This document shows positions 33,489 to 35,238 of a stretch of 64,000 nucleotides of DNA, piece by piece. The stretch lies in sequence record MK327940.1. One strand, given 5' to 3'. Positions within the stretch are counted from its first letter, which is position 1; each line of letters begins with the position of its first letter. The stretch is from Escherichia phage vB_EcoM_G29. The notes beneath the pieces were generated by a model. It ran no database searches. It saw only the letters and a program-made list of their open reading frames with translations, and was not told the origin of the DNA. The translations under genes and the position numbers were made by a program.

Positions 33489-33821
33489 TTATTTTACTAC
33501 TTTCCAATGCTGCATGTCAAGTTTACCAACTTTTTTCATCTTCTCAATTAAGCGTTCGGCACGTTGGCGAGCTGTAACATAATACCATTCACCTAATTCA
33601 TTTTGTTCAATTTTTCCAACGATTACTGTATTCAATTCATAAATCCAACCAGTAAAGAAATTATGAACTTGAATTGTAAAGGTGAAATCTGTTCCCATAC
33701 CTTCTGTTGTTTCTACTTCAATAATATCACCTTCAACTGCCATTAAGAACCACATAGTTTCATCATATTTACCATTGAAGCATTTAGTTTTAACTGCAGC
33801 GTTCAGATTAATCGTTTTCAT
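33489..33821 (-). CDS. hypothetical protein, 110 aa
   Basis: ORF with ATG start. Confidence 0.6.
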   Translation of the reverse strand: MKTINLNAAVKTKCFNGKYDETMWFLMAVEGDIIEVETTEGMGTDFTFTIQVHNFFTGWIYELNTVIVGKIEQNELGEWYYVTARQRAERLIEKMKKVGKLDMQHWKVVK

Positions 33822-33900
33822 TTTATTCTCCTTTGTTTGTGTAAGATAATACTATCACAAAGGAACCATACTGTAAACAACTTTATGCAATCTTTGGAAA

Positions 33901-33927
33901 ATAAAAAAGGACTCCCGAAGGAGTCCT
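33901..33927 (-). terminator. intrinsic terminator after small basic ORF
   Basis: Minus strand: aggactcc-uucg-ggagtcct followed by U6 run, 5 nt after stop. Confidence 0.7.
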
Positions 33928-33931
33928 CAAC

Positions 33932-34108
33932 TTATGCTTTCTGCTTACCAAAACGAGAAGCATCATCTCGAAGAACCGCACGTGCTCGGCGCATGATCTT
34001 CTCAACAGTTTGATTGATACGAGAGTTCGACCCACGCTTGTAGCCAGCGCGTTTAGAATCACCAACTTTCTTTTCAACTGCTTTCTTTGCTTTAGCTTGT
34101 TTTGCCAT
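33932..34108 (-). CDS. small highly basic protein, 58 aa (MAKQAKAKKAVEKK...)
   Basis: Lys/Arg-rich ORF; ATG at 34108 with AAGAGAA upstream; strong terminator directly downstream; track ORF extends to 34150. Confidence 0.55.
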   Translation of the reverse strand: MAKQAKAKKAVEKKVGDSKRAGYKRGSNSRINQTVEKIMRRARAVLRDDASRFGKQKA

Positions 34109-34506
34109 TATAAATTCTCTTTTAAATGAAAATGCAGGACTTATTGGCATTGCCTGCGCAAGCCCTCAAGGGGAACATAGGTTTTTTGATATTTAACGAC
34201 CAGGATAACCATAAACCCGTCATCATACCTTATAGCTCTTATCTGTTGCACACCGTTAGCTTAAAGGTTCCGGGTTCGATTTCTCGAGGATAAGATATAT
34301 ACTGATGGATATATAGGCCTTGAGGCGTACTCCCGATTGGCCATCACCTCGGGGTAGCATGCACTTGCCGCTATAAGAATAACATTCAAGAGGTACACCG
34401 TAAAACTGCCGGGGTCTTAAAACTATAATGATTCGCAAATCATTAATCAGACAGTTCGACGGCTCCTCGTTTTAACTTCACACTAAGGCAGTGAATCTCC
34501 AATAAA

Positions 34507-34755
34507 TTACTTCAGTGTTACCACAAAGTGACGAACTGCTTTTCGTGCAGCAGAAGCCAGAGGCTTAGCATATTTAAGTTCATCTTTTTCCTGAAGCTCA
34601 GCAGCTAATGCAGTTTGAGCAGGATTCAGATGTTTGAAATAACGCAGGATTTCAAGAGCTTCGGCTTCAACATCAATAGATGCGCCATAGTTTTCGTGAC
34701 CATTATTCCATGCGTTTCGTTGCAGTTCAAGAGCGTGTTGTAATTGTTTAATCAT
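34507..34755 (-). CDS. rIII: rIII lysis-inhibition accessory protein (82 aa)
   Basis: 82-aa ORF, T4 rIII length, directly downstream of gene 31. Confidence 0.85.
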   Translation of the reverse strand: MIKQLQHALELQRNAWNNGHENYGASIDVEAEALEILRYFKHLNPAQTALAAELQEKDELKYAKPLASAARKAVRHFVVTLK

Positions 34756-34902: not shown

Positions 34903-35238
34903 TCACTTATAAAGACACGGAATAGCTTTATAGTGACAGGTAACGAATTTTTGTTTAATTTCTTTTGGCTGCTTAAGACCCAGAGCTACAAAAGGGTGTG
35001 GAACGTTTCGAATTTGACCAACTGGAAGAGAAGTCAAATCACCAACTTCACAGAAACCTTCAGGAACATCAGGACCGACAGAGTGAACTACACACAGTTC
35101 AGGAACTTCACCTTGAACACGTTTACCGATAATAAGTCCTGATTCTGTAACTTCTTCATCACCGGCTTGTGCAGGTTCAGAAACTAAAATAACATATTCA
35201 CCGACAGCACGAATTGGTAGCTGTTGTACTTCAGACAT
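34903..35238 (-). CDS. 31: co-chaperonin gp31 (GroES functional analogue, 111 aa)
   Basis: 111-aa ORF, T4 gp31 length and position; MotA-box promoter upstream. Confidence 0.9.

Follow-up and report, generated by a model that had tools for sequence, protein, structure and literature searches.

The window analysed here comprises 64,000 nt of Escherichia phage vB_EcoM_G29 (MK327940.1), a T4-like phage of the genus Tequatrovirus, and the subject of this work is the 398-nt spacer (34109-34506, minus strand) between its genes rIII and 30.9, together with a structured RNA of approximately 150 nt lying centrally in that spacer, hereafter the core (34229-34378, minus strand). The local genes are all on the minus strand and include cd (from 35840), gene 31 (34903-35238), rIII (34507-34755, with its stop codon tta at 34507-34509), 30.9 (33932-34108, with its start codon cat at 34106-34108) and 30.8 (33489-33821), which matches the Pfam family Phage_30_8. 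The product of 30.9 is a basic protein of 58 residues with no Pfam family and no solved relative, and it belongs only to a PHROG of unknown function. A strong intrinsic terminator (33907-33928, minus strand) is located immediately 3′ of 30.9 and ends the transcription unit, and an early-type promoter for 30.8 (33849-33877, minus strand) lies beyond it, which places the spacer inside the ...31-rIII-30.9 message with 30.9 as the last cistron. An earlier note on this DNA, made from the letters alone, had seen no GTTTAC, MotA box or TATAAATA in the gap, and a scan of both strands likewise returned none; no sigma-70-like promoter or intrinsic terminator was found within the gap either. Judged from this arrangement, the gap is transcribed as sense-strand intercistronic RNA of the rIII-30.9 message. 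Its GC content is 0.42, compared with 0.36 for the whole window.

In the comparative model, the core forms a domain complete in itself, with P1 as its closing helix, in which P1, the P2-P3 arm, P4 and a branched domain P5 with the subsidiary hairpins P5a and P5b, seven helices altogether, are arranged around a perfect four-way junction predicted to have no unpaired junction nucleotides. The 5′ strand of P1, CUUAUAGC (34370-34377), pairs with GCUAUAAG (34229-34236) over 8 bp in this phage, and four of the five modelled pairs covary among relatives (AUAGC/GCUAU, UAAAC/GUUUA and GACAC/GUGU). P2 is formed by GGC (34367-34369) and GCC (34316-34318), and the P3 hairpin arm (34325-34358) is stacked on it across a conserved internal loop, AAGNGCAU/CUCAAG. 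P3 consists of the stem CUACCCCGA/UCGGGAGUACG with two bulges and the 12-nt loop GGUGAUGGCCAA; double changes are found in eight of its ten pairs, as in CGGAU/AUCCG of phage EcS1 and CUCUA/UAGAG of phage PS2, while the P2 of the Yersinia phage fHe-Yen9-01 has changed from GGC/GCC to GGU/ACC. P4 is the covarying hairpin UAUAUAU-CCAUCA-GUAUAUA (34296-34315), known with the stems UAUAUA/UAUAUA, UAUACA/UGUAUA and UAUUCA/UGAAUA, and it accounts for the alternating A/T stretch that the earlier note had pointed out, which is indeed present at 34294-34316. The P5 domain (34237-34295) has a stem UCUUAUC/GAUAAGA that encloses P5a, P5b and a GCAACA joiner. P5a (34276-34287) is the hairpin UCGA-GAAA-UCGA with a GNRA tetraloop, the antisense of which reads TCGATTTCTCGA; its stem occurs as UCGA/UCGA, CCGA/UCGG, CUGA/UCAG, CAGA/UCUG and CCA/UGG. 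P5b (34250-34275) is bounded by ACCCG and CGGUGU, and a G-C pair in it is replaced by A-U in fHe-Yen9-01.

The two arms P3 and P4 are predicted to be tied together by a kissing loop of 5-6 bp, which surfaced in a search for covariation among unpaired columns. GAUGG in the P3 loop (34341-34345) pairs with CCAUC in the P4 loop (34304-34308), and the interaction is 100% paired across the copies: GAUGG/CCAUC in most of them, UAUGG/CCAUA in PS2 and in the locus L011, and CAAUGA/UCAUUG in EcS1 and, as read by eye, also in fHe-Yen9-01. A further pseudoknot, GGCC/GGCC between the P3 loop and a P2 strand, had been considered and was dropped, as EcS1 and fHe-Yen9-01 have no GGCC in the loop and the compensatory GGC/GCC to GGU/ACC change in P2 also speaks against it. 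Outside the helices the sequence is strongly constrained. The GCAACA joiner is identical in all 31 distinct sequences, the P5 stretch GCUAAYGGUGUGCAACAGAU is invariant save for Y (C in 30 of them and U in fHe-Yen9-01), and the unpaired motifs CGGCAAG, GCAUG and GGCCUAU are invariant across genera in a MAFFT alignment of 20 sequences; the unpaired stretch GGUGUGCAACAGAU is kept in fHe-Yen9-01 as well.

The evidence for the fold comes from covariation. A covariance model of the core, R1, gives a single match in the 64 kb of the window (181.6 bits, E 1.6e-40) and scores 105.8 bits on the divergent copy of fHe-Yen9-01. Re-alignment of 35 copies (31 distinct), fHe-Yen9-01 included, to R1 produced the alignment A5, in which 99.2% of the 1357 pair cells are standard pairs and 24 of the 44 pairs have compensatory changes on both sides, although A5 was fitted to the model and is thereby biased toward the structure, and many copies are close kin, so that the independent events are fewer than the cell counts suggest. 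None of 500 shuffles equalled A5 in any of five measures, and sliding the partners by 1-3 columns reduces pairing to 23-42%. An independent MAFFT and RNAalifold analysis of 20 distinct copies concurs, recovering the same fold with compensatory changes in all helices. Folding of single sequences is uninformative (z-scores of -0.5 to -1.6), and the structure is thus revealed only by comparative analysis.

The strand of the RNA follows from the same alignment. The paired columns contain 61 G.U cells and no A.C cells, which assigns the RNA to the minus strand, the sense strand of rIII and 30.9; accordingly, the sense strand is 99.2% paired and the opposite strand 94.7%, the difference being 61 mismatches. 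The tetraloops of the spacer, GAAA of the GNRA class and UGCG or UACG of the UNCG type, are likewise formed on the sense strand only. With compensatory pairs beyond the controls and a strand-specific G.U pattern, the core has the sequence signature of a conserved structured RNA, and it is very likely that a functional folded RNA exists on the minus strand. Three possibilities had been named in the earlier note, namely a small RNA, a protein-binding site and a decayed gene. The first is strongly supported, as a folded RNA is indicated by the covariation, by the asymmetry of the G.U pairs and by a degree of conservation exceeding that of rIII and 30.9; it lies on the minus strand and not on the plus strand implied by the proposed T-loop, and it is far larger and more elaborate than a palindrome with a T-loop, comprising a 150-nt junction, a kissing loop, a pseudoknot and hairpins. 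A protein-binding DNA site is disfavoured by the asymmetric G.U pattern, and the remnant of a gene by purifying selection on base pairs, indels that are not in threes and stops in all frames.

The plus-strand string gGTTCGAtt, which had been likened to a tRNA T-loop, is present at 34273-34281 but is antisense to the structured strand, where it corresponds to the complement of the 3′ strand of P5a and the first bases of P5b. The GGTTCGATT string in it is on the antisense strand and its flanking bases are non-complementary. ARAGORN finds no tRNA or tmRNA gene in the whole window, Rfam finds no tRNA or tmRNA in the gap at E ≤10 and the strand is the wrong one, and a tRNA or tRNA remnant was rejected. 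The core does share with tRNA four helices at a junction, a cloverleaf-like outline and the GGTTCGATT-resembling string; in contrast to tRNA, the string is antisense and constitutes a 4-bp stem with a GAAA loop, the arm lengths and loops differ, a kissing loop is present and there is no CCA end.

The unusually long non-coding gap reported between rIII and 30.9 was borne out over its 398 bp, in which no open reading frame matches a protein family; a search of the gap frames against Pfam and PHROGs gave no matches. The statement that ATG-initiated frames reach at most 34 codons is correct for the minus strand, whereas the plus strand contains an ATG frame of 55 codons (34126-34293); a TTG frame of 60 codons is found on the minus strand, and neither of these two is conserved. 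The 34-, 55- and 60-residue frames were therefore rejected as small genes on account of the missing Pfam and PHROG matches and stops in all frames. Over the central 150 nt, all six frames are interrupted by one or more stops in each of the 31 homologues, and the indels in the 20-copy alignment are of 1, 2, 4 and 7 nt, not multiples of three. No conserved protein gene is annotated at this position in relatives, only sporadic entries: two or three short 'hypothetical protein' coding sequences or a spurious '1,4-alpha-glucan (glycogen) branching enzyme', in public records such as MZ234027, OL362041 and PP445228, none of them conserved or matched to a family. These annotated coding sequences are probably over-predictions on a structured RNA.

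The comparison across T-even genomes that the earlier note had proposed shows the spacer to be conserved. The gap is 100% identical to several phage records, including vB_EcoM_G4498 and JK23, and is matched at least partly in 943 phage records. A query of ~160 nt covering the core finds 404 phage records with a single copy each at 85-100% identity, from phages of Escherichia, Shigella, Klebsiella, Enterobacter, Yersinia, Salmonella, Citrobacter, Serratia, Raoultella, Edwardsiella and other hosts, so that the core is present in ~400 Tevenvirinae-like phage genomes, which represent eight genera or more. Its place in every locus examined is the interval from rIII to 30.9, on the strand of these genes, the loci being those of EcS1 (Kagamiyamavirus), PS2 (Muldoonvirus), KMB17 (Karamvirus), PEi20 (Kanagawavirus), VAC36 and Marfa (Marfavirus), Tequatrovirus and the JS98/VR26-type phages. 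In IMG/VR, 19 of 47 rIII loci carry the core, always just downstream of rIII. Scans by exact pattern only gave 13 metagenome and 18 IMG/VR matches, mostly in contigs of 55-178 kb with a few short fragments, and the largest of these contigs, at 165-178 kb, match the size of a T4-type genome. A two-anchor pattern search of 185,579 bacterial and archaeal species genomes found no core, and BLAST of the core against 5,426 E. coli genomes and 72,556 plasmids found no homologue or complementary target; a host or plasmid origin was consequently rejected. A dispersed repeat, whether a MITE, a REP-like sequence or another mobile multi-copy element, was also rejected, R1 matching once in the window and once per locus.

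Between genera the core is 81% identical, compared with 72.5% for rIII and 73% for 30.9. Relative to the JS98/VR26-type phages (Dhakavirus/Mosigvirus-like), the spacer of the window is 91-94% identical, rIII 82-83% and 30.9 67%, and the window and phage SP18 share a core without a single difference over 166 nt.

Phage T4 itself has no core. Its spacer is 244 bp long, 154 bp shorter than that of the window, and both sides are ~99% identical to the window, which defines the boundaries of a cassette of 156 nt (34227-34382, minus strand) that replaces the T4 dinucleotide 'GA' between GAAUGU and AUGAUGAC. Three alleles of this site were found: empty as in T4, a hairpin Y of ~50 nt, and the core. 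Module Y, ACUAUCACGCGUCAGAAAAAGGUUAUCUGUCUAAGUCGUGGUUGGU, was observed in the IMG/VR loci L042, L044, L047, L048-L050, L053, L055, L057 and L059; the Y-bearing spacers are without the core and some are of a length matching T2 or T6. The inner stem of Y covaries from CAGA/UCUG to CAGC/GCUG, and in L059 Y is situated within hairpin H1, which is described below.

The remainder of the spacer is also structured, and the whole of it is, on the comparative evidence, a chain of independently folding, conserved RNA modules on the sense strand, arranged 5′ to 3′ as hairpin A1, hairpin A2 with a UNCG tip, the core, a pseudoknot X, hairpin h2 and hairpin H1, followed by the ribosome-binding site of 30.9. 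A2 (34383-34469, minus strand) is a long irregular hairpin of 87 nt, in which RNAalifold, run on 13 variants, detects double changes at five pairs and three G.U pairs that never vary. Its tip (34427-34444) has a 7-8-bp stem with a UGCG tetraloop of the UNCG type, compensated in L057 as UCGAUU-UACG-AAUCGG. This tip is the perfect 18-bp palindrome that the earlier note had placed at 34426-34443: an inverted repeat does exist, yet it is located at 34427-34444 and is imperfect, with 7 bp (8 with the flanking T/A) around a non-palindromic centre that reads CGCA on the plus strand and UGCG on the sense strand. The gap contains two perfect 7-bp hairpins where 0.13 are expected, a number reached by 2.2% of shuffles.

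Module X (34178-34226, minus strand) is an H-type pseudoknot in the comparative model: its loop pairs with downstream sequence and both stems covary. Stem S1 is GACGGG/CCUGGUC, in S2 GGUU of the loop (34207-34210) pairs with AACC of the tail (34180-34183), and the linker between them is A-rich. In alignment A6 of 20 distinct sequences X reaches a covariation score of 0.44 versus 0.18 for shuffles, none of 500 of which attain it, with the structure having been derived by eye from the very sequences used to score it. S1 is 84% and S2 77% paired, double changes affect four of the six pairs in S1 and five of the seven in S2, and S2 is found, among other forms, as GUGAG/CUCAC, GAUGG/CCAUC, AGUAGU/ACUACU and UUGGUU/AACCAA. 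The module is present in nearly all spacers, that of T4 included. Stop-codon read-through or frameshifting driven by X was considered and rejected, with no slippery site and a spacer length mostly not a multiple of three, as was an 'AUGAUG' leader peptide upstream of X, the length and frame of which vary and the AUG of which is missing in several genera. The segment 34134-34176 (minus strand) contains hairpins h2, GUUCCCCUUGAGGGCUUG (34159-34176), and H1, GCAGG-CAAUGCCAAUAAGU-CCUGC (34134-34157), the pair standing just 5′ of the 30.9 ribosome-binding region; both were seen by eye in other genera with altered stems, without a formal count. A long-range pairing between the spacer 5′ end UUUAUUGG and the H1 loop CCAAUAAG, suggested by the minimum-free-energy fold, is not conserved in JS98-type spacers. 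The X and h2 patterns and the R1 core each occur once in the 64-kb window, and all modules are single-copy.

The order of the modules is not fixed. In the window, KMB17 and EcS1 it is X that follows the core, while in PS2, PEi20, VAC36 and Marfa X lies upstream of it; the module following P1 is X in the first three and h2 in PS2, PEi20 and Marfa, and between 66 and 143 nt separate the core from the start of 30.9. A minimal spacer of 120 nt consisting of h2, X and H1 was observed in L061 (IMG/VR 2974718797, 2750-2869); there, the frame joining the rIII stop to the 30.9 start has no stop over 40 codons, for which the probability by chance is roughly 1/7 to 1/10, and this is not so in other lineages. 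The minus strand of the spacer also has three GGAG motifs (34500, 34466 and 34333), two of them soon after the rIII stop codon. GGAG is the target of the RegB endoribonuclease, the activation of which RIII was recently reported to inhibit (PMC9409239). The motifs could provide a processing link to RegB and RIII.

A T4-type rIII-30.9 spacer without the core was further observed inside the tRNA cluster of the phi92-like phages (Justusliebigvirus), an unrelated myovirus genus. It lies between tRNA-Gly and tRNA-Gln, is ~95% identical to T4 and occurs in at least ten distinct phages in the listed records, such as AV123 (OR352953; locus L003, 2510-2860) and phi92 (NC_023693, 53695-53823; locus L089). 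The segment is circularly permuted: the spacer is followed by a 30.9 ATG that continues in frame into the final 26 codons of rIII (MEKYELKYAKPLASAARKAVRHFVVTLK*), and then by tRNA-Gln, with a 13-nt direct repeat TTTATTGGAGATT at both ends, and the resulting reading frame is annotated as putative rIII in phi92. From its sequence, this is a T4-type leader that was captured together with the start of a reading frame.

The core does not correspond to any known RNA family. None of the 4227 models of Rfam 15, which include all riboswitch and self-cleaving ribozyme classes, group I and II introns, 6S and Y-RNA-like RNAs, matched the gap, whether the gathering score or E ≤10 was applied, and four divergent homologues, EcS1, fHe-Yen9-01, KMB17 and PS2, gave the same outcome. 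In one homologue an S15-leader match outside the core is at chance level (20.5 bits versus a gathering score of 39.5, E 0.5). Near the locus, weak matches at 33893-33976 (minus strand) to Atu_C8, a Rhizobiales small RNA (31.4 bits, E 3.5e-4, gathering score 50), and to Phe_leader are due to the strong terminator hairpin at 33907-33928. Resemblances by eye to the hammerhead, the hairpin ribozyme and SAM-I and preQ1-like elements were not borne out by the Rfam models. A literature search found no description of the core, although large automated catalogues of candidate phage RNAs (e.g. PMC10690425) may list it unnamed. The core seems to represent an RNA family of T-even-type phages without an earlier description, which happens to have been deleted in T4.

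Several known systems are nevertheless comparable. Purine and lysine riboswitches have multi-way-junction aptamers with parallel arms locked by kissing loops, and the core similarly has a closing P1, a junction, two arms joined loop to loop, conserved unpaired nucleotides and a position in an mRNA leader. On the other hand, it shares no sequence or covariance-model similarity with them, its four-way junction is without unpaired nucleotides, it has an extra three-way sub-domain P5/P5a/P5b, and no terminator or platform sequestering the Shine-Dalgarno sequence is tied to P1; the resemblance, the closest in outline, is an analogy of architecture only. The T4 gene 32 leader pseudoknot and the leaders of ribosomal proteins are structured autoregulatory mRNA leaders, and the spacer is reminiscent of these in having the pseudoknot X on the sense strand, without a promoter of its own, upstream of the gene of a small basic protein. 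Unlike such leaders, the core is dispensable in T4, and the sole echo in Rfam is the chance-level S15-leader match. The likeness to the autoregulatory leaders of small basic proteins is hypothetical, as would be a binding of gp30.9 to its own leader. With the rnaC and rnaD of T4 (the species 1 and 2 RNAs of the tRNA cluster, ~120-140 nt), the core has in common that it is an orphan RNA of a T-even phage; it differs in showing no homology, in its locus and in its absence from T4, and R1 has no match at E ≤10 in the T4 region 69000-74000 with the tRNAs, rnaC and rnaD, so that a relationship was rejected. Finally, the PeSL promoter-stem-loop modules were reportedly described by Arbiol et al. in 2010 as mobile regulatory cassettes of T4-type phages. 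The spacer modules are likewise small, non-coding, intergenic and shuffled, gained or lost between relatives; in contrast to PeSL they have no promoter, are single-copy, are confined to one spacer and are far more structured.

The best explanation at present, held tentatively and at somewhat less than an even chance, is that the core controls the rIII-30.9 transcript or 30.9 in cis. The complexity of the RNA and the conservation of its loops suggest that it adopts a defined three-dimensional fold recognised by a specific partner, which may be a protein or a small ligand. As the core lacks both a promoter and a terminator and without exception belongs to this one transcript, a post-transcriptional role appears most likely, in which it would affect the stability or processing of the message or the translation of its last cistron 30.9. 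Its position relative to the other modules varies by genus, and of two near-identical phages one may have it and the other not; the core would therefore act as an autonomous, dispensable module rather than as a classical riboswitch aptamer coupled to a fixed expression platform. Besides the bias of A5 and the kinship of its copies, several points weigh against control in cis. T4 and the spacers with neither module or with Y only retain 30.9 without the core, which indicates that it is not needed for 30.9 expression; the variable distance between core and 30.9, with differing intervening modules, argues against a direct structural switch on the 30.9 ribosome-binding site; and the high conservation of the loops fits a trans-acting RNA equally well.

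Such a trans-acting RNA, a stable molecule that consists of the core by itself or together with adjoining modules, is excised from the rIII-30.9 message and binds or titrates a host or phage factor, is the nearest competitor and a possible one, if somewhat less probable than control in cis. It might for example be a decoy against a host defence or an RNA-targeting enzyme, encoded by an accessory 'RNA gene' in a tolerant spacer. The domain is closed on itself by P1, its unpaired stretches are invariant across genera, it occupies a cassette-like site with presence or absence differing between near-identical phages, and its position within the spacer is not fixed; its full identity with SP18 may be set beside the 82-84% nucleotide identity of rIII in the JS98/VR26-type loci, T4-type spacer modules reside in a cluster of stable RNAs in the phi92-like phages, and T4 does have orphan stable RNAs in rnaC and rnaD. 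Against this stand the lack of a promoter, terminator or recognisable processing signal of its own, the confinement of the core to the rIII-30.9 spacer among the loci examined, the missing E. coli or plasmid homologue or complementary target at BLAST sensitivity and the negative covariance-model comparison with rnaC and rnaD. More speculative again is the idea that the core represents a new functional RNA class specific to T-even-type phages, swapped via the cassette site and ligand-sensing, catalytic or directed against a host factor, for example one of defence.

A new self-cleaving ribozyme that cuts the rIII/30.9 message, or a riboswitch aptamer that senses a metabolite or signalling nucleotide and tunes 30.9, is unlikely. 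The sense strand does carry a conserved, covarying leader domain at a distance of 66-143 nt from 30.9, on its 5′ side, but no expression platform competing with P1 was found, there being no terminator in the gap and different modules after P1 in different genera. The closing P1, the multi-helix junction, the arms locked by the kissing loop, the invariant joiners, a GNRA tetraloop for which the conserved internal loop is a possible docking site, and the 5′ leader or intercistronic location would be in keeping with either, whereas five homologues have no Rfam 15 ribozyme or riboswitch match at E ≤10, the predicted junction leaves no unpaired nucleotides for a pocket and the element is dispensable in T4. 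The prospects are poorer still for a passive role in RNA stability or insulation, in which the folds would block exonucleases or uncouple rIII and 30.9 translation with no specific partner: a simple barrier needs no seven covarying helices, kissing loop or 20-nt invariant single strands, even though this one spacer combines a number of stable hairpins and pseudoknots that are unrelated to each other and can be shuffled, lost or replaced. An element acting as DNA (a protein-binding, origin or recombination site) or a plus-strand antisense or tRNA-like RNA could be seen in the inverted repeats and the plus-strand GGTTCGATT string, and is very improbable given the G.U asymmetry with its lower pairing of the opposite strand, the negative ARAGORN and Rfam results for tRNA and tmRNA, the GNRA and UNCG loops on the minus strand only and the absence of a plus-strand promoter-like site in the gap. 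A decayed gene or neutral junk, which the variable gap length among relatives and the missing 156 nt of T4 might suggest, is scarcely credible for a spacer that is more conserved than both flanking genes, keeps its base pairs by compensatory changes, matches no protein family and has stops in all frames.

The T4-type phages are among bacterial viruses the best studied, and yet they harbour a complex conserved RNA fold with no Rfam family or description that could be found. RNAs of such complexity usually prove to be ribozymes, riboswitches or RNAs with specific protein partners. If the core indeed constitutes a new functional class, its lack in T4 would explain why decades of T4 genetics missed it. 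T4 without the core and its close Tequatrovirus relatives with it form natural near-isogenic pairs, the cassette boundaries of which are known to the base. The gap, hitherto filled by annotators with spurious reading frames, should be annotated as RNA, and the core provides an initial way into the function of gene 30.9 and of the sequence 3′ of rIII, the lysis-inhibition gene.

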